Part shown: positions 3,984 to 62,900 of the stretch, one piece after another
Layout: every line of letters begins with the position of its first letter
Numbering within the stretch: position 1 is the first letter of the stretch
Source of the DNA: Prorocentrum cordatum
Lineage: Eukaryota
Direction of reading: 5' to 3'
DNA: 64,000 bases
Assembly (NCBI GenBank): GCA_963575745.1
Contig: CAUYUJ010000277.1
Location: 1-64,000 of the forward strand
Made by a program: the position numbers and the translations under genes
The notes under the pieces: generated by a model
The model's database searches: none
Told to the model about the DNA's origin: nothing
Seen by the model: only the letters and a program-made list of their open reading frames with translations

Positions 3984-5120
3984 CACCCCTCACGCAGATC
4001 GGCGGGGTCAGGGTCTAAAAACACAAGGGATTTGCCACATTTCTGAAATGCGGTGGCACCCCTCACGCAGATCGGCAGGATCAGGGTCCAAAAACACAAA
4101 GGATTTGCAACATTGCTGACATTCGCTGTCACCCCTCACGCAGATCGGCAGGGTCAGGGGCCAAAAACACAAAGGATTTGCCACATCTCTGACATTCGCT
4201 GCCACCCCTCACGCAGATCGGCGGGGTCAGGGTCCAAAAACACAAAGGATTTGCCACGTCTCTAACATTCGGTGGCACTCCTCACGCAGATCGGCAGGGT
4301 CAGGGTCCAAAAACAAACGAGATTTGCTACATTTCTGAAATTCGGTGGCACCCCTCACGCAGATCGGCAGGGTCAGGGTCCAAAAACAGACGAGATTTGC
4401 TACATTTCTGAAATTCGGTGGCACCCCTCACGCAGATCGGCGGGGTCAGGGTCCAAAAACGCATGGGATTTGCAGCATTTCTGACATTCGCTGTCACCCC
4501 TCACGCAGATCGGCAGGGACAGGAGCCAAAAACACAAAGGATTTGCCACATCTCTGACATTCGCTGCCACCCCTCACGCAGATCGGCGGGGTCAGCCCAA
4601 AAACAGACGAGATTTGCTACATTTCTGAAATTCGGTGGCACCCCTCACGCAGATCGGCGGGGTCAGGGTCTAAAAACACAAGGGATTTGCCACATTTTCC
4701 AAATTCGCTTGCACCCCTCACGCAGATCGGCGGGGTCAGGGTCCAAAAACACAAAGGATTTGCAACATTGCTGACATTTGCTGTCACCCCTCACGCAGAT
4801 CGGCGAGGTCAGGGTGCAAAAACACAAAGGATTTGCCACATCTCTGACATTCGGTGGCACTCCTCACGCAGATCGGCAGGGTCAGGGTCCAAAAACAAAC
4901 GAGATTTGCTACATTTCTGAAATTCGGTGGCACCCCTCACGCAGATCGGCAGGGTCAGGGTCCAAAAACACACGGGGTTTGCCACATTTCTGAAATTCGG
5001 CGGCACCCCACACGCAGATCATTAAGGTCAGGGTCCACAAAAACATGAGATTTGACACATTTCTCAAATTCGGCGGCACCCCTCACGCAGATCCGTAGGG
5101 TCAGGGTCGAAAAACAAACA
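3984..5120 (+). repeat. 73-bp tandem repeat array, about 15.5 copies
   Basis: CACCCCTCACGCAGATCGGC recurs at 3984, 4057, 4130 and onward with a 73-bp period. The remainder of each unit is also homologous. Confidence 0.95.
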
Positions 5121-17856: not shown

Positions 17857-18084
17857 CGCTCGAGCAGAGACGATTACGGACCCTTCTCTGCCTGGTCGGC
17901 GCCTGCAGACATACGCACTACCCAGCGCTCAATGAGTCGTTCCTCCCACGACGCCCCAGGCCATCTGGAGACTCACCCATCCCAAGCTATCTCCTCCAAA
18001 CTCAATGGTAGGGTCAGCAATCCCCGTGTTATTATAATTAATAATATCATGATTGGTATTCCTCCTTCTCAGCATCATAATATA

Positions 18085-18143
18085 ATCATCATCAGCGTCT
18101 TCATCATCATCAGCATCAGCATCAGCATCAGCATCAGCATCAG

Positions 18144-18201
<58 letters not shown>

Positions 18202-18249
18202 GTCGTCATCATCATCATCATCACCAGCATCATCTCATCATCATCCTCG

Positions 18250-18290
<41 letters not shown>

Positions 18291-19818
18291 GTCGTCATCA
18301 TCATCATCATCAGCAGCAGCAGCATCGTTACCATCATCATCAGCATCAGCAGCATCATCATCATCATCAGCAGCATCACCATAATCAACAGCATGGTCAT
18401 CGTCACATCATCATCGTCATCATCGTCAACATCAACAACGTCAGCATCAGCATCAGCACCAGAATCAGTATCGTCAGCATTATCATCGGCTGCATCATCA
18501 GCATCATAATCATAATCCGCAGCATCATCATCAGCATCATCATCATCATCATCATCCTTACCAGTATCATCATCATCATCATCCGCATCATCAGCATCAT
18601 CATCACCATCATCATGATTATCATCATCAGCATCATCCTCACCAACAGCATACTCATCATCAGCATCATCATCAGCAGCAGCATCATCAGTATCAGCATC
18701 ATCATCATCAGCATCATCATCATCAACGGCATCATCACCATCATCAGCAGCAGCATCATCAGCATCATCATCATCAACGGCATCATGATCAGCATCACCA
18801 TCCTCATTATCGCCATCATCCGCATCATCATCAGCGTCATCGGCGTCGTCATCATCATCATCATCATCATGAGCACCATCATCATCAGCATCATCATCAT
18901 CGGCGTCAGCATCATCAGCATCATCAGCACCAGCAACATCACCATCATCAACAGCATGGTCATCGTCACATCATCATCCGCATCATCGTCATCATCATCA
19001 TCAACATCAGCATCAGCATCATCATCATCATCGTCATCATCATCGTCATCATCATCATCATCATCGTCAGCAGTATCATCATCGTCACCGTCATCACCAC
19101 CATCATCATCATAATCATAATCCGCAGCATCATCATCAGCATCATCATCATCCTTACCAGTATCATCATCATCCGCATCATCAACATCATCATCACCATC
19201 ATCAGAATTATCATCCTCATCATCAGCATCATCATCAGCAGCAGCAGCATCTTCTCAAAATCCTCACCATCATCATCAACAGCATCATCATCAGCAGCAG
19301 CATCATCGTCACCATCACGTTCAGCATCATCATCATCATCATCATCATCATCAACATCATCATCATCATCACCATCATCACCATCATCATCACCATCATC
19401 GGTCATCGTCATCAGCATCGTCATCATCATCATCAGCAGCATCAGCATCAGCATCGTCATCACCACCATCAACCGCACCATCACCATCACCATCATGTAC
19501 ACAAGTGCACAGCTTGTACTGACCGATGCCTCCTTGCATCGACTGAAGCATCATCATCACCACCATCAACAACATCATCATCAGCAGCAGCATCATCATT
19601 ATCAGCATCAACATCATCAGCCGCAGCATCATCATCAGCAGCAGCATCGTCATCATCCTCATCGACAGCATCAGCAGAATCATCATCATCAGCAGCATCG
19701 TCATCATGATCTTCATTAGCATCATCAGCATCATAATCGTCATCATCGTCATCGACATCGTCGTCGTCATCATCAGCATCATCATCAGCATCATCATCAT
19801 CGTCGTCGTCATCGTCAA
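18085..19818. repeat. Long degenerate (CAT/CAG/CGT)n microsatellite
   Basis: About 1.7 kb of catcatcat with variant triplets. Confidence 0.95.
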
Positions 19819-24081: not shown

Positions 24082-24621
24082 CATGATCAACATCATGATC
24101 ATCACCACCACCGCCACCATCATCATCGTAATCATCATCATCACCACCACCACCATCACCATCATCATCACCACCAGCATCATCATCATCATCATCATCA
24201 TCAGCACCACCACCACAACCATCATCATCATCATCATCATCAGCAGCAGCATCATCAGCATCAGCATCACCATAATCAACAACATCATCACCACCACCAC
24301 CATCTTAATCATCATCATCATCATCATCACCACCACCACCATCACCATCATCATCACCACCACCACCAGCACCATCATCGTCACCACCACCACAACCATC
24401 ATCATCGTCATCATCTGCAGCGTCATCATCATCAGCAGCAGCATCATCATCAGCATCGTCATCATCACCATCATCAGCATCACCATCACCATCACTATCA
24501 TCCTCAGCATCATCATGACAATCATCATAAAACTCAACATCATCAGGATAATCATCGAAACTCAGCATCATCAGCATCCGCATCGTCTTCATCATCATCA
24601 GCAGCATCATCATCATCATCG

Positions 24622-24668
<47 letters not shown>

Positions 24669-25150
24669 GTCATCGTCATCGTCAGCATCATCATCACCAT
24701 CAGCAGCATCATCATTATCAGCATCAACACGAGCATCATCATCATCATGAGATCATCAGCATCATCATCATTATCAGAATCATCATCATTAGCATCAGCA
24801 TCAGCATCATCATCAGCAGCATCATCAGAATCATCATACCCCTCCTCCTCCTCCTCCTCCTCCTCCTCCTCCTCCTCCTCCTGCTCTCTTCCTGCTCCTC
24901 CCTCCTCCTCCTCCTCCCCCCTCCTCCTCCTCCTCCTCCCTCCTCCTCTCCTCCTCCGCCTCCTCCTCCTCCTGCTCCTCCCCCCCCTCCTCCTCCAAAC
25001 CTGCTCCCTCTCCCTCCTCCTCCTCCTCCTCCTCCTCCTCTCCTCCTCCTCCTCTCCTCCTCCTCCTCATCCTCCTCCTCTGCCTCCTCCCCCGCCTGCT
25101 CCCCCCCCTCCTCCTCAGATCTCTCATTCTCCTCTTCATCATCATCATCA
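24082..25150. repeat. (CAT/CAC)n followed by (CCT)n microsatellites
   Basis: Directly visible in the sequence. Confidence 0.95.
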
Positions 25151-26485: not shown

Positions 26486-27356
<871 letters not shown>

Positions 27357-28454
27357 TACTTAGAGGCCTCTCAAGGGCGTCTTCGAGGCAGTTTGGGAGC
27401 CTCTTGGGATCCTCCTGGGGGCCTCCTGGAGGCCTCTTGGGAGCCTCATGGGGTTCTCTTGGGGGCCTCTAGGGGCCTCTTGGGGGCCTCTTGGGGCCTC
27501 CTGGGGACCCAATGCAAGACCCGGACATCTGGCGCTCCAGTTTTTCTGGTGCGTGGGCCCCCAGAGGCCTGGCCACCTTCCCTACGGCCGGCTTTTCAGC
27601 GTGAGTCGTTTTTGACGGTCCCGGGGCCCGTTCATGGCCCCCTGAGGTCGACAACGACCAAACTCCGGCCGGCCCAGTTTTTTTCCGGAGCATCGGATCT
27701 CGGGGGACGGACGGAGGAGGGGGAGGAATCGACTACACGTAAGAGTGACCTCTCGCCAAAGTGACCATAGGTGCAGGCTCACTGGGGTCCCTCGATCGCC
27801 GGGGTGCTTCAATCGTGCTCCGCCTCGGGTTTCTGTGTTTCACGTGGTACCGCCGTGGAGCCCTGGGTTCTTGGTCCTGGGCTGAAGGCCGCGGACGGTC
27901 CTTTGGGAGAGTTCCTGCGTGGACATCGGCTGTGGTAGAGTTTCACGAGACCCACCGCTCTGTCGCACGCTGAGGACACTGAGGAGACGAGGAACGCTGC
28001 GAGCCACGTCGCTCAGAGTCTGGCCACTGCAAGACCCAGACATCTGGCGCTCCAGTTTTTCTGATGCGTCCCTTAACCTCTCTGCAATCAGCCTTGAATC
28101 ACTCTTCGTGCTGATCCTTTGAACTCGCGACGTCTTTTTGGTGCGGGATTCTATCAATGTGGCCTCTCCATGAGACGTCTGAGTGCGCTCGACTATAACC
28201 ACGCACGCGCTTCGCGGGCGCCAAGGTTCTAGTCGAGCACATCCGCAGCGGGGCCATCTTGGGAGACCTTGAAGCCCACAAGAAGAGCCTCGGCGGGGAA
28301 TGAGCCTTGCATGTGCTCTGGGTGCCCCGGGTTTGGGGGGAGGCCCTAGGGCACCTGGGCTGGCGCTCGCAAAATATGGATCGCGTGCTCTGCGCGCGCT
28401 CAAGTTCTAGTTGATCACCGCACGACTGGGCAGTCGTCGTCGTCGTCGTCATGG

Positions 28455-28495
<41 letters not shown>

Positions 28496-28496
28496 C

Positions 28497-28530
<34 letters not shown>

Positions 28531-29029
28531 CGTCGTCATCATCATCGTCGTCGTCATCGTCGTCGTCAATCGTCGTCGTTACCCCGTTCGTCGGTCGTCG
28601 TCGTAATCATCTCGCTCGTCGATCGTTGGTCGTCCGTTTTCGTCGTCACCACCCATTCCCGATAACATCAGGAGCGCCTCGGATCGGCGGCTCTGGCCGG
28701 AGGCCACTGCCAACATGGATCGCGCGCCCCGCGCGTGCTCAAGCTCTGATTGATCACCGCACGACTGGGCAGTGGATCGTGGTACACGCCCTGAGTCCTG
28801 CGTGAAGGCGCGCTGTCAGACTTCTTCGCTGCTGCTTCACCTCCCCCATTGTGCCAGTCTGTCCAAAGTGAAAGGGCAGGATTCATGACAGCAGGAATGA
28901 ACAGGCAGAGGGGAAACAGGAGGCGGAGGAGGAGGAGGAAGAGGCTGCGGAGCATGGCGAAGGGGGGAGAGGGTGTGCGCGCAAGGATGGGGGAAAGAAA
29001 CTGCTGCTCTGGACTGAGAAGGGGAGGCC

Positions 29030-29250
29030 TCCGCTCGGCGCGCACTTGTCTGGTCGGTCGCCCACACGTGTGCGCACAAGGCGGAACGAAAAGATCCGCT
29101 CGGCACACACTTGTCTGATCGGTCGCCCAAGTGTGTGAGCGTAGGGCGGAACGAGAGCAGCTGCCCTGGACGGAGAAACGCAGGCCCCCGCTCGGGGCAC
29201 ACTTGTCTGGTCGGTGGCCCAAGGGTGTGCGGGCGGCGCGGAACGAAAAT
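29030..29250 (+). repeat. Three degenerate copies of a ~65-90-bp repeat
   Basis: cgctcgg..cacttgtctggtcggtcgccca..ggcggaacga at about 29032, 29097 and 29190. Confidence 0.7.
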
Positions 29251-30089
29251 TTACGTTAACGCATCTACTAAATAGCCAGCTTTGTACTGAAAGCTCGGGG
29301 GGGACCTTTTAAAGGGGGGCAAGCGGAGCTGGAGCGACAACCCTACATCATAGCGGGACGCGATGCCGCACCACCACGGCGCCTGAATATCCGACGCAGC
29401 AGCGGGAGCGACCGGGAGATTGCCGCAAGCCGAGCTAGCGGGGGCAATCCCCCCCCGAGGTGTTCAAAAGCGGGACCGAGCCACCGTGGGCCCACGGCCT
29501 CGAGCGGTACCTGACCTGGCCACAAGGCCTCACCAGGGCCAGCGAGAAACTCGGAAACGCAAAGTCACAGCCCCCGACTGTGGAACCAGCCTGGCACACA
29601 TAGGGTGGGAGGGTTTGGGATATTCATCTATGCTGTGATCCAGCCCCCCTGTTTTATTTCAAAACCCCCGGTCTAAATATTTCTCTGCTCTAAATCCTGA
29701 GGAAGACGAGAGAGGACAGGGGGGCGCATCAACACGCCGCCAGCACGCTTCGGCTATTTCAACAGATAGGGCCCCACGGCCACACAAAAGCGAAAGCTGA
29801 GCATCCAGCACGAGAGAAAGGCCATCACGGCTCAAGCGAGGCGCCTTCCTTGCGCCCGTGACGGGCACGGGCTGCGGCGCTGGGGCGGCCCGTCGTCAAC
29901 GCCCGCCCGCCGTCGAAGTTCGGGAGTTCGACCTCCTGGCCACGCGCCCGCCCCAGCTCCTCCAGCAGGCGCCTCGCCAGAGGGGTCTGAGCCGCGGGCG
30001 ACTCCTCGATGAACGACCTCAGCGCCTCGGCCGGCGCCGCCCAGAAGCGGGCGCCTGCCCGCGCCTGCTCGTCCGTCATCCTGCTCAAC

Positions 30090-30880
30090 TTATTGATGAG
30101 AATGTGAGTCCTGGTGTAGCGCGCCAGCGCCGTTGTCGATTGCCACCTGCCCATGCGCCGCGGGGCCACCAGACAGCCGCCTCCCGCCACGAAGCCGGCC
30201 GCCCCCGAATACCGAATGGCGCGTGGGAGGCCCATGCCGGCCAGCCCCACCTCGCCCAGCGCCTTGCGCCACTCGCGTCTGGACTTGTCCTGCAAGATGG
30301 GGAAGACGAGGCCCCTGCTGGCACCGCCCCGCATCGGGGCCCGCACCGCGGCACCCGTCACCGGCCACGAGATCACGACGCCCTGGTTCGCGCACGTCTT
30401 GACCCCCCCCCTCTCGCGCCCGCCGAGGGTGAAGGCCAGCTGGCCGCCAGGCCCCTCGGACGCGTCCTCGGCCCTGAGCTGGCCCCAGAGCCATCCGCCC
30501 AGCTGCGCGAGCACCGCCGAGCCCTCGATCAAGCCGCACGGGGAACAGTCTGCCGATCACCAGGCCGACCGCCTCCATGGGAACAGGAGCGCCTTCGCAC
30601 AGCTGCCCAAGCCGCTGCCGCGACTTCAGGGCCCTCGCCGATGTCGGCAGCCGGTCACGGTGGTCCTGGAAGACATGCGTGAAGCCATTGAACAGCATGT
30701 TGGCGCGCCCGAAGCCCAGCTGCCGCACGTCACACATGTCCGAGATGTGGTCCGCCAGCGCCTGGCCCCTCGCCTCAAATGTGGTGAAATCGAGCTGGTT
30801 TCTCTTGACGTCCACCAGGAACTCGCGGACCGCCTTCTGGTAGGCCAGGTTGGTCGCGTCGTCCACTGCGTGAATGACCA
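30090..30880 (-). pseudogene. Tyrosine recombinase of the DIRS-like element
   Basis: N-terminal VDDATNLAYQKAVREF, then LPTSARALKS, KTCANQGV, RAIRYSGA (degenerate HxLRHxG) and GRWQSTTALARY (catalytic Tyr). Confidence 0.8.
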
Positions 30881-31164
30881 GGCGATTCGCGTGGGGCAGC
30901 TTGTCTCGCTGCGCCTCGCCCCAAGCCCGCGCCCCCTTTTTGGCCAAGGGAGGCGGCGCGATCGCCCTTTGATCGGGATGCGCGCGGGCTCTGGCCGCCT
31001 TGGTCACTGACGGCCCCTCCGCGCGCCACCAGCATCCCGAAGGCTACACATGCCGACCCAGCCACTGCACCCTGACGATCTTGACGATGATTTAAGAGCC
31101 GCTGGAGTCGTTGCGGGACGCATCGGGCCACATGGAGCTCGTTTCCCCCGCCGCACCGATGGGT

Positions 31165-32460
31165 AGCCCCCTCGAAGGCCCGTCCGCCAGATTGAGCTCC
31201 GACGGCACCCAGCGGCAGTAGCCCCTGCACCTGCAGACCATCTGGATGATACCCGCGATGCGGCACAGGTGCAGGACGTCCACGGCCGAGGACCGGCCTT
31301 TCTGCAGCGAGCCCAGCGACGCCATCGAATACGTGAAAATCAAGATGGTGCGGCCCCAGGCTTGCGATGTCCTGCTCAGGTGCCTCAGGGTGGCCACCAC
31401 CGTCCGCAGCTCCAGGATGTCGCTGTGCTCCTGGTGCCTCCGCTTCCCGCAGAACAGGATGCGCCAGTGGTGCATCAACCAGTCGCCCTTCAGCGGGATG
31501 GTGGTACCCGTGGCCTTGGCCATCTGTGGCCGACCTCCTCACAGCCTCAGTCTCGCCCCCGCTGGTATCGTCCCCCAGGAAAGCTCGAGCTGCTTCACGA
31601 TCTCCGCGTAGCACCTGCACAACTCGAGCGGGCACGCACACGCCAACTGTGTCCACCCGAGCCCGCATGGCGACTTGCCCCTCAGCTCCTGGCGTGGCTT
31701 TTGGGCGCGGCCGAAGCACTGAAAAGACCCCCTGCACCTCCTCGCCAAGCTGGTCACCTCTTTCACGCTCGCGACGAATGCGGTGGGCTTCTTCCAGATC
31801 CCCCCGAACATGCAATAGTCCAGCTCCACCCTCCAGACGTCTACGTTCGCCAAGACCTTGACGAGGGCCGGAAAGGCCCAGATATAGCTGCCAGCCGGTT
31901 CCTCCAGCGTGAAAGGTATCGCCATGGTCACACAGATCTTCAGCACCTCCACCGCCACCAAGCACAGCAGGTTCCCCTCCTCGAGCTTCGCCTGACTCGA
32001 CTCGCCCAGGTCCTCGAAGCCCCAGATGTGCTCTGCTGACCGCAACGGCGGTGCACGCGCCTTCGAAAAAGTAGCGCAGGGGGGCGCGGTGTGCACCCGC
32101 CAGTACCAACCTTGGCGAAGCCTCCTCAGCAGCACTTCCAGGTTCTCGCTGACCAGCACGTCGCACCCGCCCCCCTTCCGAAATGCCCCACGCTTCGCCC
32201 CAGGAGTCCGCGAGCTCCCTGATGGCGCCCAGCAGCCTCGACGAGCCCGGAAACAATTCCAGCACCCCTGGGCGACCCGCTCGAGGTCGGGCAGGTAGGT
32301 CCTCCTCGTCGCCGACTGCCTTCACCCCTCTCTCCACCTCGGCGTGGACCTCCTCCATCTGCGGGCCCCAGAGCCCCTCCGTTCCACGACCTGCCTCTGC
32401 CCGTGCCTCCTCGGGGTCGCAGTCGCAAGCCAACGATCCACATCCACTCTCCGAGGCGTC
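31165..32460 (-). pseudogene. DIRS-type RNase H split by the DNMT domain
   Basis: N part ADASESGCG (~32460-32435). C part HSDILELRTV, IFTYS (canonical DS), KGRSS, WVPSELNLADGPSR (~31430-31168). Confidence 0.8.
31585..32265 (-). pseudogene. C5 cytosine DNA methyltransferase-like domain, frameshifted near 32160
   Basis: Motif I-like VLELFPGSSRL, motif IV APPCATFS, motif VI-like LEEPAGSYIW, YCMFGGIWKKPT, and a C-terminal CPLELCRCYA. Confidence 0.8.
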
Positions 32461-32579
32461 GGCCATGTGCGCACGCGGCCACCAGGGCGCCTCCAAGTCC
32501 GACTCCACGTAGATCGAGAGGCTCACCAACGCCAAGAGCTCGCTCTTGACTAACCCGGGCAACCTCCGAGGCACCACAG

Positions 32580-33800
32580 ACCCCCCCCACCTCGCAGCCC
32601 CTGATCCACCTGCAGGCCATCATCGTCCACGTCCAGCGGCCCACCAAGCTTGACAGGACAGAAGGTGGGATGTCACCCTCCAGCAGAAGCGCCTCCGTAG
32701 CCAGGACCAGCTCCGCAAACTTCTTCGTCTGGACACTCAGCACGCACGGCCTCGTCGCTGGAATCGCGAGCCCAACTCCCCCATTGAGCCCCTCCCCCCA
32801 GCCCTCCTTGTGGATGGCGAGGCCCTTCTGGTTCAGAAGCTGCTCCACCCCCTCCTCCGCCTGCAGGATCTCCTCCTCCTCGCCGGGGCCCTTCAGCGTA
32901 AAGCCGATATAGTCGTCGATGTACAGCATCAGGATGAGCCTCACCGCGGCCCCCACAGGCGCCACGCCCTCCACCGCCTCGGCCTCGCTCGAGGGAGGAT
33001 CCCCCTGCTGCGGCGAAGGTCGAATGAAAGAGGCCGGACTACAAGAGCTCGGGGTCGGCTTCCCGCATGCAATGGTCGGCGCCTTCAGGGCCTCGAAACT
33101 CGCCTTCAAACATGCATGAGCCAGAAAGACCGCCCAGGCCGAGCCCATCACCAGGCTCGCTGCTCCAAGTCCAATATCCAAGGCCTCGGGCTTCTTGAAG
33201 TCAAGCCCCTCCACCTGGCCACACTGGCGTAGCTCCTGCGGCGAGACGCCCTCCACGACGAAGAACTCCGCCAGCTCCGATCCCCAGCGCAGCCGATTGC
33301 ACCAATCCCACACGTCGCCGTGGAAAGAGAAGAGCCGTCGCCCACGCAAGATGGCCTCGTCCAAATCCAGCAGAGCCAAGCCTGCGGGGCTCCCAAGCGG
33401 CACCCACGGCGGTTCGCGAAAAAGAACGTTGACATTCCTGCAGTCCCAGCTCAGGCGACTCTTCAACACTTCCACTGAGTCGGGGTCGACGTCGTTGGCC
33501 ACCGTGAACCAGTCCCACCTTCTCCCGCACCTCCTTCACGTAGTCCAGCATCCCCGCTTAGTACATGCGGGACAGGAGCTCCAGTCTCTCGGCCTTGCTC
33601 TTCGGCGCCGCGTCCGAGTAGCTCTTCGTGGTCTCGTATCGCTCCCAGTCCACCTCGCCTGCGCTCTGGATCACCAGCTTCTCGAACGAATCGATGTAGC
33701 TGCGCGCGCAAGCCGACAAGTCCTGGACACGAACCGGCGTCGTCCCTGGGCTGGGTAGTGAGACTTGCCCGGCTCGGAGGGGGCAGAGATCCCCCTTCTT
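32580..33800 (-). pseudogene. DIRS-type reverse transcriptase
   Basis: RLSWDCRNVNVLFREPP, GDVWDWCNRL, LVMGSAWAVFLAH, and YIDD at 32912-32923. Confidence 0.85.
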
Positions 33801-34732
33801 GAATATCGTCGCCTTCTTGCTGTCCTCCTTCCTCTTCACCGTTGTAAAATAGCCGCGGCCCGTCGTCTCCTCGAGGCGGCTCAGAGCCACCTTCCCGTCG
33901 TTGATGTTGCCCCAGCTCGCCCGAGTGGCGCGCGGGTCCCAGATGTCGCTGATGGTATTATTCTGGAGCGGGCTGCTCGCCGCCCACGCCTCCTTCGCTT
34001 CCTCCACCGTCTTGAGGGGGGGCGGCTGCAGCCAACCCTTCGCACGGCCCACGGCCATGCTCCTAATTCCCGAGATCGCCCTCGCCACCCTTCTCCAAGT
34101 CACGCGCAGGCTGACGGAGCTCAGCCTGGCACTCGATCTTCTTGTAGTCATAGGGAAAGGGAGGCTTGGCAAAGTCCTCCGCGGGCCTCGCTCCCGAGGA
34201 TCCATTGGCGACGTCCAGGGCGGGCCTCACCTGGTGACCTGCACCACGACGCACTGGTTGACCAGCTTGCAGAAGAAGAGCCTCAGGGAGATCCACGTAG
34301 ACCTCCTCCGACTCGAAAATCGCCTGGACAAGGAACTCCTCCCAGGCAGGCTCGCAGAACACCCAACCCAGCAGGCCCACGAGGAGCCCGACCCAAATGG
34401 CGGTGCGCGGCGCGCGAGCAGCGGCCGTCGACCCGCCCAAGCCGCGTCGATCGCACCAGCCGCAACCTATTCGCTGTCCGCACCGCCTCCCCCTCCACCA
34501 CCTGGGCTCCAGTGCTTGTTCAGGGTCGCGCGGCGCTTCAGCTTCTCCAACACCTCCTCGTTGGCCGTCAAGTTCTCGCTGTCACGGTCGCCGTCGAGGC
34601 GCAGGTACTCCACGGCCAGGCTCCAATCGACCTTGGACTTCCACTTGCCCCCGTTCTGCGCCTTGGGGCGCTGCCACTCGGCACGACACTGCACCCGCTT
34701 GTAGGCCACACGGGGCCCCAAAATAGCCGAAC

Positions 34733-35272
34733 AGGCTTCCGGATTGCCCCAATGTGGCCTCAAGCCCGGCCTCCACGCAGCCAAGACGGCCAATTGACTG
34801 CTTCAGACTGCAGAACATCACTTTCCGACTGCCGGAGAACCCTGACGATGCCCCCAAGGGACCCCAAGAAGCCTCAAGATGCCCCCTTGATAAGCACCCA
34901 AGAGGTGCCTCCAACAGCCAATTGAGGAAGCCCAGACCGGGGGCGCGCTAAAAGATCTCGGACAGCGCTATCAAGCACAGGCGCGTGACATAGTCGTGCC
35001 TCCTGAGGGCCTCTTGGGAACCTCTTGGGTCTTCGTGGGGGCATCTGAAGGGCTTCTGGGGGGCTCTCCGTGCTTCCTCAATTGGCTGTTGGAGGCACCT
35101 CTTGGGTGCTTCTCGGGGGGGGCATCTTGGGGCTGCTTGGGGTCCCTTGGGGGCATCGTCAGGGTTCTCCGGGCAGTCGAGAAGTGATGTTCTGCAGTCT
35201 GAAGCAGTCAATTGGCCGTCTTGGCTGCGTGGAGGCCCGGCTTGAGGCCACATTGGGGCAATCCAGAAGCCT
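34733..35272. repeat. Inverted repeat with ~200-bp arms and a ~140-bp spacer
   Basis: 34733-34931 is the reverse complement of 35072-35272 at high identity. Confidence 0.9.
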
Positions 35273-35279
35273 TCCAGGG

Positions 35280-37020
35280 CCTCCTTGAAGCAATTTTGAT
35301 GCATCGAGAGCACTGTTCGGCTGTCTTTGGGCCCCGTGTAGCACGTCTCCCGTGAGCCTTTTGGGGCCTGGTGGGGGGCTTTGGGGGACCTCGTCGGACC
35401 ACTTGGGGACTCTTGGGGCCTCCTGTGGCCTCTTAGGGCGGGAAGCTCTGCTGTTGGGTTCGCGTTCCCCTTCTTGGTGCTCTCTTGGGGCCCTCTTGGG
35501 GCACTCTCGGGCCGTCTTGGGCGCCTCGGGCACCGTCTTGGGGCCCTCGTGGGCCGTCTTGGGGCCCTCTTGGAGGCCTCTTCGGCTATCTTGGAGCGGC
35601 CGTGGGGGCCACTTGGGCCGTCTTGGAGCGTCGGGATGCCAAAAGGCTGGGAACCCCAAAATCCATCAAAAGCCGATGGGAAAACAATGCTTCTTGGAAC
35701 CTCTTCGGCCTTCTGGGGAGCTTCTTGAGGGCCTCTTGGGTCCCATTTGGGGGTCTCTGGGGCTTCATGAGAGCCTCTCGGGGTGGAAGGCTCGGATTTT
35801 CGGTTCGTCTTACCCCTCTTGGGCCCCCCTTGGGGCCGTATTGGTGCCCTCTCGGGCTATCTTGGGCCCTGTTGGAGGCCTCTTGGGCTATCTTGGATTG
35901 GTCTTGGAGGCCTTTTGGGCTGTCTTGGAGCGTCAGGACGCCAAAAGGCTGAAAACGCGAACACCAATCAAAAACCGATGGCAAGACATGGATGTTTGCC
36001 GCTTGGGGCCTTCGTGGGAGGCCTCTTGGATACTCTTCGGCCCCCTGGGGGGCTTCTTGGGGGCCTCTTGGAGCCTGTTAGGGGCTTCTCGGGGCCTCCT
36101 GAGAGCCTCTCGGGGTGGAAGACTCGGATTTTCAATTCGTGTCAACCCTCTTGGCTCCATCTTGGGGCCGTCTTGGCGCCCTCTCGGGCCGCCTTGGGCG
36201 CCTCTGGCGCCGTCTTGGGACCCCTGTGGGCTGTCGTGTGACCGTCTTCAAGGCCTCTGGGGATGCCTTGGAGCGGAAATTGAAGCCTCTTGGGCCGTCG
36301 TGAAGCGTCAGGAAACTCAAAAGGCGAGAACTCGAAAATCGATCAAAAACCAAAGGAAAACACATTAGTTGTGCCTCCTGGGGCTCCTTGGGAGCCATCT
36401 TGGAGACCTCTTGGGGCGTTTTGGAGGCCTCTTGGACAGTCAGGGACCAAGTCTGGGGTGATCTCGGGCGGTCATTGGTCGTTTTCGTTGTCTGGAAACG
36501 CCAGGGCCGTCTTCGGGCGACTTTACAAGGCCCCCAGCGCGACGGCAGGGCCCCCGGGCCCCCCAGTGCGAGGGCCCCGTCCCGGGCCCCGCCTCGTGCC
36601 CGCGGCAGGGCGTCCCTGGGCCGTCTCGGCGCCCTCGTGAGGGCCTGTTGGGGCGACATTGGGTGTCTGAAATCCATCAAAAACCTAAAGACAACCAATG
36701 ACTTTGGCGTCCCTTTGGGCCGTGTTGGAAGCCTTGTGGGCCGTCCGGAGGCCATCTTGGGCGTGTTCGAACGATATGTCCTCGTTTCAAGGCCTCTTGG
36801 GGGCCTCTTGCTGCCCTTTTCGTCTGTGTTGGAGCTTTCTTGGGCCGTCTGGGGGCGGCCCTGGGCTGTCTCGGCGCCCTCTTGGAAGCCTGTTTGGAAG
36901 ATTTCTGGGTGTCCTTGACCGTCCTCCTTCAACGTCGGCGGCACTGGCCGTAAGACTTCCTGGGAACATGATTTGTTGGGGTGTCGTTGGGCGCCTCCGC
37001 AGGCTTCGGGGCCTGATGCG
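35280..37020 (+). repeat. Degenerate GGCC(T/G)(C/T)CTTGGG-rich interspersed repeat family
   Basis: Dense ~11-bp ggcctcttggg/gccgtcttggg units. The same family occurs at 25790-26450, 27360-27510 and 40550-42600, and reversed at 44690-45080 and 63460-63720. Confidence 0.75.
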
Positions 37021-42604: not shown

Positions 42605-43234
42605 GCACACACACACACACACACACGCACACACATACGCACACACACACACACACACACACACCCACACGCACACACACACGCACACAGACACACACAG
42701 ACACACACAGACACACACAGACACACACAGACACACACAGACACAACACACAACACAACACAACACAACACAACACAACACGACACGACACAACACAACA
42801 CAACACAACACAACACAACACACAACACAACACAACACAACACAACACAATACAACACAATACAACACAACACCACACACAACACAACATAACACATCAC
42901 AACACAACACACAACACACAACACACAACACACAACACACAACACACAACACACAACACACAACACACAACACACAACACACAACACACGACACACGACA
43001 CACGACACACAACACACAACACACAACACACAACACCACAACACCACAACACCACAACACCACAACACAACACAACACAACACAACACAACACAACACAA
43101 CACAACACCAACACAACACAACACAACACAACACAACACAACACAACACAACACAACACAACACAACACAACACAACACAACACAACACAACACAACACA
43201 ACACACACAGACACACACACACACACACACACAC
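42605..43234. repeat. (CA)n/(CAACA)n/(CACAACA)n microsatellite
   Basis: Directly visible in the sequence. Confidence 0.95.
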
Positions 43235-48333: not shown

Positions 48334-48631
48334 ATTAGGAAATCGCAGGTTTCAGATCCACGGGGAACCCGGGGAACAGTTCTAGGACGGTCAAGGAAGA
48401 AAGAAATGGCCCAAGGGGTCATAGACACGAAACTTCTCGGAAAGAACGTCAAAGAGTTTCGGGCAGAGATGCTGATTGGCCAGACTGGTCGTTTCAGTTT
48501 GAAAACTATGCAGATGCAGTGAGTAGTGAAATGTTGGAACATGTGGAAATCGCCAGAACGAGGCAGGATCCAATACAACTTTCAGAGATGGCCGCACCTG
48601 TGAGACAGCATGCGGCTAATCTGGCTACATC

Positions 48632-57915: not shown

Positions 57916-58015
57916 NNNNNNNNNNNNNNNNNNNNNNNNNNNNNNNNNNNNNNNNNNNNNNNNNNNNNNNNNNNNNNNNNNNNNNNNNNNNNNNNNNNNN
58001 NNNNNNNNNNNNNNN
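57916..58015. other. Assembly gap (100 N)
   Basis: Run of N. Confidence 1.
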
Positions 58016-58042
58016 CCTCCTCCTCCTCCTCCTCCTCCTCCT

Positions 58043-58303
58043 CGTATTGTTCTTAGTACTATTGTTCTTAGTAATGTTAGCATGAACAGTTGTCATATTC
58101 TTCTTAATCGTATAAGTAGTGTTCGTAAAAAATATTATCAATAGTATTAGTATCGTTAGGAGTATGAATATCAGTAATATCTGTATATGTACAAGTATTA
58201 TTAGTAGTATTAGTATTGTTATCACTATATGACTATTCTGAACATTATCCGTATTAGTATTATTAATAGTAGTAGTCGCATCAATATAATTATCATTACC
58301 ACG

Positions 58304-58347
<44 letters not shown>

Positions 58348-59259
58348 GACTACTACTACTACTACTACTACTGCTACTACTACTACTACTACTACTACTA
58401 TTACTACTACTACTAGTATTATTATCAGTATTAGTATTATCATCACTAGTATTAGCATTATGCTTAGTATTCTTAGTATTATTAATATTATCATTCGTAA
58501 TATTATTATTAATAGTATTATTAGTCGTGTGACTAGTACTATTATTAGTATTATTAGTAGCAGTATTGTTATGATTATTTGTAAAAATATGAGTATAAAG
58601 GTTATTAGTATATTACTCGTGTTATTAAAAACAATAGTATTAGTAACACTAGTGTTATTAGTAGTAGTACCAGTATTGCGATTAATGTTAGTATTAATAT
58701 TAATATTAGTAATAGTATCAGTATTAGTATTAGTAACGTTATTAGTATTATCATGATTAGTGTTAAAATTATCAGTAATAATACTCTTATGTTAAACATT
58801 AGTATCATTATCGGTGTTCGCATTATTCCTATCAGTATACTTATTACTATTGCCACTACTATTACTATTGTTAATCATTACATTATTCGTAGGTAGTATT
58901 ACTGTTATTACTGGCAGGATTATGATTAACAATAATGGTATTAGTGTTATGTTTCGTGTTAGTAATGGTACTATTATGGTTACTAGTATGATTGGTACTA
59001 GAAATATGAATATGGTTGTTATTATTACTCGTATGCTGATTATTAGTAGTAGAAATATTGTCAGTATAATGATAAGGAGTAGTATTATTCTTATTACGAG
59101 TAGTATTAGTAATATTAGTAACATCATGATACGTATTATGTGTAGTCGTGTTATTATCGGTACTATGAATAATAATATTAGTAGTATTATTATGTTGTAT
59201 TACCATTACTACTAATATTCTTAATAATGGTACTACTATTATTAATATCGCTATTATTC

Positions 59260-59292
<33 letters not shown>

Positions 59293-59930
59293 ATAGTGTT
59301 ATTACTACTGCTAGTATTAATAATAACAGTACTAGTATGTTCATTAGTCTTAGTAGTATTACTATTACTATTATTAGTCGTCCTTTTCGTATTGCCCATA
59401 ATCATATTCATATGTTTCGTTTTATTATTCGTAATAGTCTTCGCATTCCTTTTATTATTGATCGTCTGTTATGCTAATTATTACTATTCCTCTTCCTCCT
59501 CCTCCTCTTCTTCCTCCTCCTCCCCCTCCTCCTCCTGCTCCTGCTCATGCCCCTGTTCCTGCTCCTGCTCCTGCACCTGATCCTGCTGTTCCTCCTCCTC
59601 CTGTTGCTGCTCCTGCTCCTGCTCCTGCTCCTGCTGTTCCTCCTCCTCCTCCTCCTCCTCTCCTCCTCCTCCTCCTCCTCCTCCTCCTCCCTCAACTTCG
59701 TCTCCTCCTCTCCTCCGCCTCCGCCTCCGCCTCCGCCCCGCCTCTCCTCCGCCTCCTCTTCCTCCTCCTCCTCCCTCCTCCTCCTCCTCCTCTCCTCCTC
59801 CTCCTCCTCCTCCTCCTCCTTCTCCTCCTCCTTTTCTCCTCCTCCTGCCCTCCTCCTTCTCCTCCTCCTCCGCCACCTCCTCCTCCTCCTCCTCCTCCTC
59901 CTCCTCCTCTTCGTCCTCCTCCTCCTTCTC
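58043..59930. repeat. AT-rich degenerate (TAT/TAG/TAC)n tract followed by (CCT)/(CCTGCT)n
   Basis: Directly visible in the sequence. Confidence 0.93.
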
Positions 59931-62900
59931 GTCTTTCCCGCGCCCCCACGCGGACCCCAGGGATGACCCGAAGAGGCCTTCCAGGGACACCCTTTTGCTC
60001 TCAGAGATCTCTCCGTTCACCATGGCTGCCCAGTTTGTTTCACTACGCGTCGTTTCGTCCTTTTTCCCGTCAGCTCTCAGGGGCAGGGTTTCTGACTGGC
60101 CAGGTGGGGATACTTTTTTGGCTGGCGAGCGACGCGGACAGACGCGCGCCGTCTAACAAGTCGTGATGGTGCAGGCCAACCGCAGGCAGCACGCGGAAAG
60201 GGGGGCCACAACGCTGGCGAAAACAACGCGGCGGAAGCGAAAGAGAAAGAGACACACGAGGAGAGCAAGAAGGGCGAAACGAAGCGAGAAAAACGGAAAC
60301 CAAGGACGAGACTGAAGAGAAGGCAAGCCGCAGCTCACGCGCAAACCGGGCAAGAGACGAACGCCCCTTGCCGAACAACCGGAACTTGTATCAAGGCTGA
60401 CCCAAGCCAATCTAAGGCACGCAGTTTAAACGTCACAGAGTGGCCGCTGGTACGAGGGGCGCGTGAGCGTTCGGCAGCTCCAGGAACACGTAGTCAGCCG
60501 CAAGGTCGCTGCCACCGCGAAACGCGAAGGGGCAAGCCACGAGCCCGGCCAAGCCAGCGCGCAGCACCGTCTCGAGTTCACCGCAGAAGGAGCACACTCC
60601 GGTGGCAACAGAAGCATACCAAGTCAGCCGGGGGGGTGACCAGCCTGGGCCTGCCAAGTACGCCAGCTCAGGGCGGGGGGGTGCGCCGCCTGGGACATGA
60701 AGCTCTCTGGGGGTGATCAGCCCTAGCCCGCCGGGCGAGCAGCCTTAGGGCGATAGGGGGATTGCATTGCCTGAGACCTGCAGCTCGAGAAACTTACGCC
60801 TGAGACATATTGGTGGCTGGCCTGGGAGCGGCGAGCGGGGGTGGGGATCCAAACGCCGTCCTGTGCCAAGAGCGGGGTAAAGCAGCCAGCTCGCGGTTGC
60901 ACCGCATGAGAATGCCTGGTGCTCTGGTACGGTGCAGCTAACAGCCGCAGAAATGTGGGAAAGAGGCTGTCGCATGAGACATACTGGAGGTCAGACTGGG
61001 AGAAGCAAGCGGGGGGGAAGCCGATTGCCGCCTACGACCAAGAGTGGGGTGGAGTGTGGATCACCCCTCCTTCTTTCCAGGCCGATCTTTGTTGACTACA
61101 TCTCTCCATGGGGTTCGCCTGCCGCCGTAGTCCACTCGCAGGCTCGCGAATTGCGAGGCAATGTCCGCTGTAAACCACCTTAACTGATAGTATTGCCTTC
61201 CTCGGAAGCCTGATCGTACATGTGACCATATCTGAAATTTCAATGCTAGTGTTCCCACTCTGTTGCATTGCAGCGTCGACGTGTGTCCTAGAGGTACTAT
61301 GTAACCCACGTGCGAAAGAGCTTCTGTCGCTCTGCAACCTCCTGTTTAGTTTTCTTGATCACTATCGGACCCTGCCCGCTCATGTTTGTAACGGGCTGGT
61401 CGGGATACGCGAAGCGTGAAGAATTATACTTCCCGCCCATTGGCAAGCTCCCACGTCGACGCCCCTGAAAGAAAAAACACAAGACGAACCGGTTACCTTC
61501 TCGGTTTTTTTCCTTTCTTTCAGACTGGAGCTCGCGTCCATGGACTGCTTGTGCTATACTTCTCCAGGGACGGATAGGCGACGCTATGTGCTAGGACTGC
61601 TTGAAGGGCGGAGAGGGTGAGGCGAGGAGAGAGCCGGCAAAGGAGAAGAGAGAGGAGGAAAGGGCACTCAGAGGAGCCTTCAAACCTGAGACCTTCATTT
61701 TTCTTCAGGGCAGAGCCCCCGAAGTCCCAACACTTTCTCCGAAAAGGGGGGCTCCTCGACGATGCAGGCAGGCAGGTACCTCCACGATCTGTTTATGCAA
61801 TGGCTCTCGATTCAAGCTGGCACTCCTGCAGAAAGTGAAATGGTGTTTAGAGTTAGATCCTGTTACAACTCTGAAAGTCGCGGCACCTTCCCCAGGGCCA
61901 GGCCGAACATGGCCAAAACCCTGCCGTCGTTATTTTGTCATGACTTGAGGGGGTCTGGGCACCGAACTCCCTGGTCGATCCAACAGCGTGGTGGACACAT
62001 CGAGACCCTCTCAGTGGAGCGAGAGGCCGAAAACTGCCAACAACCTTCCAGCGTGACCTTGTCCCGACACGGGCATGCCTGTGAAGGGCGGCCTCCACAT
62101 CACCTCTCGCGGCCTCTGGCTGGCAGGCGTTGCCGAGCGCCGCCGCCGCCGCGGCCCGCGCTGGGCAGCCCGAAGCGCCGCGCGGGACCAGCCGCAGGAA
62201 TGGCCCGATGTCCTGAGAGGCGTCGATCGGGGGGAATGGCTCGGGGGGGGGGGGGGGAACATCGATGTGGAATCGGCGATACACCGCCGATTTGTCGGCC
62301 ATGGGTCCCTGATAGCGAGTCCGCACCTTCACGGGCGGGGTGGGGCTATCAAGCCCCTGTCAATGATCTATGGGCGATGAGGCGTCGATGTCCCCCCCTG
62401 AAACTAATCCCCCGATGGGTGCCCCCTGGCGGTCGGGTCATCACTCGACTCTCCGGCGGCCGCTCGGGGCGATGTGGTGCCCAGAACGCCCTCGGCGAGG
62501 CGCAGCAGCTGGAAGGCATCCCGAGGCTGGGACACCGCCGAAAACCGACGAAAACGCCCAGATACCTCGAACATCCCAGCCATTCTCGAAAACACCTGGA
62601 AGACCCGAAACGGGTATGGAAAAAATAGGCACGATGCCCGCCAACAAATGTTGTCCAAAACCGACGACAGCGGCCGCTGTTGGACAGGCGGCCTTCTGTC
62701 TCAAATGGACAATCCCCGTAGCGGCACCGACAGCAAATCCTGTTCAGAGTGGACAGGAAACGCAGTCGGTCCCTGCACCCATTGTTTCCGTAACAAGTTC
62801 GAACGTCCCGACATCCCCCCCCATCGTTGCCCCTGACGTCCACGACTGGCAGCGCCACGCCGCGCGCGGCGCCAGCCGCGCCGCGCGCGCGGGGCACCGC

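Follow-up and report, generated by a model that had tools for sequence, protein, structure and literature searches.

Retrotransposon-borne DNA methylases are already known, and where such an element carries a cytosine methylase of its own, DNA methylation can no longer be regarded simply as a defence of the host. The described systems closest to the subject of this report, a DIRS-like retrotransposon copy within a 64,000-nucleotide stretch of Prorocentrum cordatum DNA (contig CAUYUJ010000277.1, positions 1 to 64,000; hereafter the window), are the SymbioDIRS-Dnmt3 elements of Symbiodinium. In these, a DNA methyltransferase (DNMT) domain shares the Pol open reading frame (ORF) with reverse transcriptase (RT) and RNase H; the two structures described differ in how their domains are ordered (PMC5890265). 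The domains were found with the Pfam profile PF00145 and placed in the Dnmt3 clade; isolated DNMT domains from two copies carried out de novo CG methylation in yeast, and methylation of the cDNA upon reverse transcription was proposed (PMC5890265). Elements of the DIRS1 group carry instead a Dam-like N6-adenine methyltransferase after RNase H (Goodwin and Poulter 2004, via PMC5890265; bioRxiv 10.64898/2026.05.21.726589). Further cases are KnitGypsy-Dnmt3 of Klebsormidium and chromovirus-like elements of Cymbomonas and Euglena, which also carry DNMT (PMC5890265; bioRxiv 10.64898/2026.05.21.726589).

The window holds one decayed copy of a DIRS-like tyrosine-recombinase retrotransposon, a kind abundant in dinoflagellates. 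Like SymbioDIRS-Dnmt3, it belongs to a dinoflagellate DIRS-like group in which a methylase-type domain lies in the RT/RNase H ORF, the recombinase has an ORF of its own and more than one domain order exists. Unlike SymbioDIRS-Dnmt3, its methylase-type domain, here called X, falls below the PF00145 cut-off in every protein scanned, and the A-coding-B-A-B repeats of the published elements were not found around the window copy. In the passages of running text that were compared, de Mendoza et al. 2018 (PMC5890265) do not mention a nesting of the methylase within RNase H. With the DIRS1 group the copy shares a DIRS-order Pol with an accessory domain of DNA-methyltransferase type; the Dam-like domain, however, has another fold, targets adenine N6 and is appended after RNase H, whereas X is inserted within it. 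KnitGypsy-Dnmt3 and the chromovirus-like elements are similar as independent captures of a cytosine methylase by a retrotransposon Pol, but are long terminal repeat (Ty3-type) elements with DNMT appended to the polyprotein. The part of the literature that was searched, passages of PMC9998398 and bioRxiv 10.64898/2026.05.21.726589 included, yielded no account of a methylase inserted into RNase H.

What appears new is the form: a cytosine-methylase-type domain as a domain-in-domain insertion, hidden from standard annotation. The window copy has a Pol of this nested type (type A below), in which a methyltransferase-fold domain lies inside RNase H, probably at a site that simply tolerates it, and would probably act as a methylase in active elements.

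RNase H split by an insert

Translation of 29800-34400 on the minus strand gives the order of the window Pol as an N-terminal region, RT, RNase H strands 1-2, domain X and the remaining RNase H. The closest homologue, an intact protein of 1044 amino acids (P0001), served as reference for tblastn and for the structure model. An initial annotation of this DNA had placed a complete C5 DNMT inside the RNase H domain of a DIRS-like element; all the motifs that it named are present on the minus strand, in the order proposed, at or next to the positions given for them. In the direction of translation, the split region comprises:

32359..32472, minus strand: RNase H N-terminal part, strands 1-2 and a lineage-specific helix; ADASESGCG (32437-32463) holds the first catalytic Asp
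32266..32358, minus strand: acidic linker from the RNase H N-terminal part to domain X, equivalent to residues 59-84 of the P0001 model, where the predicted local distance difference test (pLDDT) is below 50
31584..32265, minus strand: domain X, C5-cytosine-methyltransferase-like, with motifs I, II, IV, VI, VIII-like and X-like
32245-32265, minus strand: motif I of X, VLELFPG, in a frame shared with ADASESGCG
32182-32196, minus strand: motif II of X, EAWGI, with the acid lost (family EAWDI, D to G)
32166..32181, minus strand: third frameshift, within X between motifs II and III, where tblastn pieces 3 and 4 overlap
32064-32087, minus strand: motif IV of X, APPCATFS
31887-31907, minus strand: motif VI of X, LEEPAGS, its EEP a mutated family ENP (N to E)
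31782-31820, minus strand: motif-VIII-like stretch of X, DYCMFGGIWKKPT
31677-31742, minus strand: Cys/His segment of X
31617-31637, minus strand: motif-X-like stretch of X, ACPLELC
31539..31541, minus strand: in-frame TGA in the linker from X to the RNase H C-terminal part, where P0001 reads through
31140..31493, minus strand: RNase H C-terminal part, strand 3 onward, 69% identical to P0001
within 31410-31466, minus strand: RNase H helix A with its Glu, HSDILE
31317-31337, minus strand: RNase H strand 4, FTYSMAS, catalytic Asp replaced by Tyr (family TDS reads TYS)
31287-31301, minus strand: RNase H motif KGRSS
31170-31211, minus strand: RNase H motif WVPSELNLADGPSR, which includes NLADGPSR

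ADASESGCG and VLELFPG share one frame, as had been noticed from the start, and HSDILE, KGRSS and WVPSELNLADGPSR lie in a second one. In the minus-strand translation, APPCATFS, LEEPAGS and DYCMFGGIWKKPT are likewise in a frame other than that of ADASESGCG and VLELFPG. The shift falls between EAWGI and CDVLV, which stand in different frames 16 nucleotides apart at a place where P0001 has six codons.

Residues 544-1010 of P0001 were modelled from an alignment of 31 nested homologues, with a mean pLDDT of 86.6 and a predicted template-modelling score (pTM) of 0.55. In the model, the N-terminal part contains two strands (21-30 and 35-41) and a helix (44-58) at a pLDDT of 94-98. A confident domain at about 88-323 follows, set between low-confidence stretches at 59-84 and 330-344, and the C-terminal part opens with a strand at 361-366 and continues through the usual RNase H helices and strands up to 457. 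No strand at all lies between X and strand 3. Chains of RNase H1 align to model residues 20-460 over 121 of 133 residues, and only if the N-terminal part is used; the type 1 RNase H fold is present in the model with both halves combined. The enzyme is predicted to re-form from its two halves, in keeping with the initial placement of the insert inside RNase H. Compared with type 1 RNase H proteins such as Halobacterium RNase H1 (4e19) and the RNase H of HIV-1 RT, about 320 residues here interrupt the chain between strands 2 and 3, and in type A this interruption is made up of the helix, a linker, X and a second linker. The catalytic D-E-D-D carboxylates are kept throughout the nested rows (first Asp in 25/25 rows with the N-terminal part, then Glu, Asp and Asp in 32/32 each), which fits a still-working RNase H.

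The window copy is frameshifted in exactly the X/RNase H region, and the nesting could in principle be an artefact, either of a separate element inserted into this copy or of a full RNase H standing after X with a relic DAS motif upstream. The evidence from relatives leaves hardly any room for this. Fifty-nine proteins from many contigs, and the metagenome contig L002, have this order within one ORF, the upstream Asp is retained in all 25 rows, the P0001 model lacks the strands that a second complete domain would place between X and strand 3, and the RNase H1 chains reach their 121 aligned residues only with model residues from 20 on. An insertion private to the window copy, on which the first reading of the locus would have foundered, fails as an explanation because many intact relatives encode RNase H (N-terminal part), X and RNase H (C-terminal part) in a single ORF, as seen in P0001, in 59/270 X-bearing proteins and on the L002 contig. 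It is also unlikely that the nested ORFs are gene-model or assembly artefacts, since they are found on L002 and on many independent contigs.

The site of the insertion is itself informative. The span from DAS to ADGPSR in the RNase H alignment measures 170-215 amino acids in non-nested relatives versus 412-475 in nested ones. Non-nested relatives already have about 60 extra residues between RNase H strands 2 and 3; this extra stretch follows a conserved helix-like segment (E.R....ERW), and the additional material of the nested proteins occupies the identical place. The initial annotation had suggested that nesting positions the methylase where new cDNA emerges. The strand 2-3 turn of the RNase H fold is at the sheet end remote from the active site. 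This location, the uncertain inter-domain geometry of the model at a pTM of 0.55, and the occurrence of X at three other positions in related Pols leave that idea unsupported. A tolerant loop that had already expanded is the simpler reading. The strand 2-3 hairpin would then be merely a tolerant place for insertion, and nesting a tolerated arrangement rather than a mechanistic need, because sister lineages carry X elsewhere and have about 60 extra residues in the same hairpin.

The order of a type-A Pol is an N-terminal region, RT, RNase H strands 1-2 with their helix, an acidic linker, X, a linker, and RNase H from strand 3 to the end. Active elements would probably produce this Pol with a split yet working RNase H. 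By analogy with SymbioDIRS-Dnmt3, X would transfer a methyl group from S-adenosylmethionine (SAM) to cytosine C5 in cDNA of the element itself, while reverse transcription proceeds or once it is complete. The nested clade is a clean natural case of domain-in-domain insertion, with one enzyme housed in another inside a replication polyprotein, and the tolerant strand 2-3 site of RNase H could be used for protein engineering.

Identity of domain X

Domain X is about 230 amino acids long and has, at the position of target recognition, a Cys/His-rich segment of about 50 amino acids with conserved Cys, Cys and His. It is recognised solely by profile and fold comparisons, not by library hidden Markov models (HMMs). 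A profile built from 20 X sequences and run against PDB sequences finds DNMT2 first (E 0.015) and DNMT1 next (E 0.15). Alignment of X with E. coli Dcm by hhalign (probability 79.6%, E 1.5e-5) brings motifs I, IV and VI into register and pairs the PC motif with GFPCQPFS and E-N-P with LENV. With the P0001 model as query, the top 50 Foldseek matches are exclusively C5-methyltransferases and 75 matches reach E <=1e-3, among them MET1 (1.3e-5), DNMT1, DNMT3A/B, DNMT2, M.HaeIII and M.HhaI. By VIA, the best methyltransferase matches are DNMT3B and DNMT3A. The scores obtained do not separate DNMT2, DNMT1, DNMT3 and the bacterial enzymes. The window's own X translation (203 residues, without motifs I-II because of the frameshift) is modelled at a pLDDT of 88.8, and its top 50 Foldseek matches are again only C5-methyltransferases. 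As a lead only, the nearest ESM Atlas cluster (score 0.90) carries the automatic name cytosine-5 methyltransferase family and has no common Pfam domain.

Conservation was counted over 210 X domains, on the aligned rows at each position. In motif I, Phe is found in 161/177 and the first Gly in 175/177, and the second Gly of F-x-G-x-G is not conserved. The motif II acid is kept in 182/189, and motif IV retains its PC Cys in 178/192 and its Pro in 180/193. The Glu of motif VI, as E-N-P, is kept in 192/197. At the motif-VIII-like positions, Cys (194/196), Lys (189/196) and Thr (184/196) predominate, followed by a Cys in 184/193 and a His in 170/183. Taken with the fold models, this suggests that X is a compact, divergent C5-cytosine-methyltransferase catalytic domain with the putative cofactor-binding F-x-G and acid, the PC nucleophile and the E-N-P Glu. 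The C5-methyltransferase fold proposed initially, with its catalytic Cys and Glu, is borne out at the level of these models. The domain is not the complete DNMT of the initial description, in that a canonical motif VIII and a sizeable target-recognition domain are absent.

In canonical DNMTs, motif VIII takes the form Q-x-R-x-R, PC is followed by a Gln, and motifs VIII and IX are separated by a target-recognition domain. X differs from these C5-methyltransferases in its non-canonical motif VIII, in the missing Gln and in sitting in the hairpin of another enzyme. Beside DNMT3A/3B, DNMT1/MET1, DNMT2, M.HhaI and M.HaeIII it is small, at about 230 amino acids, and has the short Cys/His segment in place of a target-recognition domain.

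Several observations weigh against X being a working cytosine methylase of active elements, or against the weight given to its nested form. In X, C-x-x-G...W-K-K-P-T replaces the canonical motif VIII, and PC lacks its following Gln. With so small a target-recognition region, the substrate and even the catalysis could differ. PF00145 stays below its cut-off in all six window pieces and in all 142 homologues scanned; weak matches appear for 4/72 proteins in one homologue scan, the best at E 0.011 and 15.7 bits against a cut-off of 22. The NCBIfam model dcm gives 1 match in 20, at E 0.22 only. Non-recognition as a C5-methyltransferase in HMM searches had been named at the outset as something that would refute the first reading, and at the level of library HMMs this is formally the outcome. 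The hhalign probability for Dcm is below 90%, and none of the Foldseek matches of the window X model reaches E <=1e-3, the best being 1.8e-3. The fold evidence comes from AlphaFold models, not solved structures. The sample of proteins is biased, having been retrieved with queries that contain X or RNase H, and the window copy itself is dead, a fossil that cannot be active.

Part of this would be explained if X were a pseudo-enzyme, a DNMT-fold module that binds nucleic acid or SAM without methyl transfer and is kept for binding or structure: its motif VIII is non-canonical, the Gln after PC and the target-recognition domain are lacking, and library HMMs fail. However, the Cys, the Glu, the F-x-G Gly and the motif II acid are kept at the frequencies given above in domains that are only about 30% identical and occur in four architectures. 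Such retention of catalytic positions is the pattern expected of catalysis, not of mere binding, and makes a pseudo-enzyme distinctly improbable.

Alternatively, X may be active on a substrate other than double-stranded cDNA, such as the RNA template (like DNMT2), an RNA:DNA hybrid or single-stranded cDNA. DNMT2, which methylates tRNA, heads the PDB profile matches, no sizeable target-recognition domain is present in X, and the cDNA of Dictyostelium DIRS-1 is mostly linear and single-stranded (PMC7192593). The scores, as noted, do not distinguish DNMT2 from DNMT1, DNMT3 and bacterial enzymes, and the published DIRS-borne DNMT domains methylated yeast DNA (PMC5890265). A substrate of this kind seems unlikely overall, if less so than an inert domain. 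Even if X is a DNA cytosine methylase, as is preferred here, one could speculate that without a large recognition domain it might act on single-stranded cDNA.

Relatives, architectures and lineage

Relatives of the window Pol are numerous. A word-indexed search with the read-through X plus RNase H C-terminal piece returned 92 long proteins, and an exhaustive phmmer search with X and the RNase H C-half returned 4613 cluster representatives at E <=0.001, of which 1173 reach E <=1e-10 and many match the RNase H part alone. The named homologues are all from dinoflagellates (Prorocentrum cordatum, Polarella glacialis, Symbiodinium, Durusdinium, Amphidinium and 'Skav' gene models). Ten homologues have, in one ORF, RT, DAS..G.G, F-x-G, PPC, ENP/EHP, KPT, EH.N..E, TDS, KGRSS and ADGPSR. 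One of these ten, P0054, is found at 100% identity within an intact 1083-amino-acid ORF on the 6119-bp metagenome contig L002. A related-locus search with P0054 gave nothing beyond this contig, and no terminal repeats were found on it. Upstream of the nested Pol, L002:1-2292 (+) contains an ORF of 763 amino acids with an open 5' end, which matched no Pfam family and showed no resemblance to the P0009 recombinase region; a second frame is stop-free over 5.9 kb (L002:246-6119, +).

An architecture census of 314 proteins, made with an HMM of X and with phmmer seeded by RT and by the RNase H C-half, found X in 270. The nested type A accounts for 59/270, with X before the RNase H C-half at a gap of 17-116 residues. 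In type B (109/270), X follows RNase H by 206-491 residues; in type B' (70/270), drawn mostly from a Symbiodiniaceae-centred set in which 68/83 proteins carry X, it follows directly. Type C, with the order X, RT, RNase H, is represented by 4/270, the gap of 592-709 residues containing RT, which brings the proteins with X before the RNase H C-half to 63/270 (59 nested and 4 type C). X stands alone in 26/270, and 2/270 are truncated. Proteins with X at the N-terminus, as in type C, are P0077, P0078, P0091, P0218 and probably P0075. Where RT and the RNase H C-half occur together (204 proteins), 179 carry X; the remaining 25/204 show that X-less Pols exist, in a sample biased as described above.

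In type B, X is far C-terminal. The spacer of two such proteins, P0144 (803-1095) and P0021 (1160-1459), resembles the tyrosine-recombinase region of P0057 (E 1e-30 and 5e-19), and their Pol seems, judged by sequence similarity, to run from RT through RNase H and recombinase to X within a single protein. In P0333 and P0334, X precedes a Copia-type RT (RVT_2, E 4e-9 and 2e-21) by about 800 residues, and in P0318 and P0321 (about 1170 amino acids) it stands behind a DUF4326 domain. The presence of X in Copia-type and DUF4326 proteins implies that the module is not confined to DIRS-like Pols.

Phylogenies indicate how the nested form relates to the others. In an RT tree of 90 rows (quick search), a branch with a Shimodaira-Hasegawa-like approximate likelihood ratio test (SH-aLRT) value of 92 divides 23/23 type-A rows from 55/55 rows in which X follows RNase H, and rows without a detected X sit on both sides of it. 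A tree of X itself, with 70 rows, groups by architecture: type B' forms one clade (support 100), 21/22 type-B rows form another (support 95), and the nested rows fall into three groups, with no starred branch demanding more than one origin per architecture class. As far as these trees go, the nested Pols are one old lineage. The clustering of X by architecture indicates that the domain diverged along with its element lineages, without recent swapping.

X may simply be the published SymbioDIRS-Dnmt3 domain and the nesting one of the two Pol orders drawn in 2018, so that only the wording would be new. In favour, DNMT, RT and RNase H share an ORF in the Symbiodinium DIRS-like elements, whose two structures differ in domain and ORF order (PMC5890265), several X architectures occur in the present sample too, and the best VIA matches are DNMT3B and DNMT3A. 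Against this, the 2018 study detected its DNMTs with PF00145 and leaves nesting within RNase H unmentioned in the passages compared (PMC5890265), while none of the 142 X-bearing or related Pols scanned here passes that profile, the S. kawagutii gene models P0057, P0233 and P0234 included. Precomputed PF00145 is likewise absent from all 199 listed homologue rows, a few proteins recurring between lists. The named type-A proteins, moreover, are from Polarella and Prorocentrum, not Symbiodinium. Identity with the published domain is a possible explanation, but a doubtful one.

The converse is somewhat better placed, if still tentative: X may be a separate family, unseen by library HMMs and distinct from the PF00145-detectable SymbioDIRS-Dnmt3 domains, which is widespread in dinoflagellate retroelement polyproteins and has been long retained and repeatedly relocated. 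Its positions include the RNase H hairpin, the place directly behind RNase H, the far side of a fused recombinase and a site ahead of RT, and Copia-type polyproteins have it as well. Either X is a divergent family missed by PF00145 screens, or the published domains are a better-conserved branch not retrieved here. If X forms a family of its own, many elements regarded as DNMT-less would carry a methylase, and a retroelement RNase H would prove able to accommodate another complete enzyme in its strand 2-3 hairpin while still being selected for catalysis. If X is active, methylase capture in dinoflagellates would be far broader than PF00145 screens could reveal. For annotation, standard domain libraries largely miss X-bearing Pols.

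The window copy and its surroundings

Outside the split region, the coding remains of the element are:

29825..34205, minus strand: DIRS-like retrotransposon coding body, Pol followed by the tyrosine-recombinase ORF (three-frame translation, tblastn)
33456..34205, minus strand: Pol N-terminal region, function unassigned, 67% identical to P0001 residues 1-254
32525..33508, minus strand: RT, with LYIDDY at 32909-32926, 60% identical to P0001 residues 238-550
31092..31094, minus strand: stop codon of the Pol frame
29930..30902, minus strand: tyrosine-recombinase ORF remnant, frameshifted, with a phmmer match to the C-terminal region of P0009
30191-30217 and 30110-30151, minus strand: IRYSGAAGF and GRWQSTTALARYTR of the recombinase remnant

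The N-terminal region begins with MDPRERGPRR (34176-34205) and matched no Pfam family; RVT_1 matches to RT in the homologues are weak to threshold-level. A tblastn search of the window with P0001 gives four collinear pieces that together span its residues 1-1011, at 60-74% identity and with E values of 2e-57 to 2e-159, far beyond chance. Since they lie in changing frames (-3, -1, -2, -3), three frameshifts separate them, within 33456-33508, 32525-32580 and 32166-32181. The length of the acidic linker before X differs between homologues. Through the change of TDS to TYS, the window copy keeps three of the four RNase H catalytic carboxylates.

The window Pol ORF joins RT, RNase H and X, with the putative recombinase in a separate ORF. 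The recombinase remnant matches the P0009 C-terminal region by phmmer at E 1.4e-19 and 4.7e-6. This region in turn resembles regions of P0057 and P0265 with sub-threshold Phage_integrase matches, the best at E 8.7e-6 and 26.1 bits against a cut-off of 27.1; the window pieces of the recombinase-like ORF have no direct Pfam match. No integrase or protease family surfaced in any Pfam scan, and a Pol with RT and RNase H but without DDE integrase or protease is the order found in DIRS elements. The original assignment to a DIRS-like element is supported by an RT with YIDD, an RNase H and a following ORF that resembles tyrosine-recombinase regions.

By tblastn and motif search, no second copy of the element was found in the 64-kb window. 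Two motif look-alikes, at 48368-48388 and 60355-60369, were rejected as chance occurrences whose flanks show no similarity. DIRS elements have terminal repeats, inverted or split direct, with an internal complementary region; here no pair of repeats brackets the coding body within 27500-36500, in a copy that is decayed and on a contig that is possibly cut.

Repeats of other kinds lie near the element. An inverted repeat of about 200 nucleotides (34733-34936 / 35067-35272), made up of three adjoining arm pairs that are 91-96% complementary, is situated a little upstream of where Pol starts. The 1.5-kb stretch 34950-36450 consists of degenerate periodic repeats of 10-11 nucleotides (GCCTCTTGGGG-like) with internal direct repeats of 125-256 nucleotides. 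Downstream of the recombinase remnant are a 12-nucleotide tandem array (TCGTGTTCGTGT-like; 28413-28568), a 90-nucleotide repeat present three times (29003-29249) and a pair of 62-nucleotide direct repeats with 87% identity (28373-28434 and 28712-28773).

Further afield, the window contains long simple repeats: (TCA)n over 1.75 kb with strong GC skew (18069-19817), (CAT)n over 0.75 kb (24082-24837), an AT/ATAC array of 0.87 kb (26486-27353), a 73-nucleotide satellite of 15.5 copies (3984-5116) and (CA)n-like arrays (42606-43234). A run of 100 N, an assembly gap, at 57916-58015 stands beside the stretch of lowest GC content (58001-60000), which has 36% versus about 60% elsewhere.

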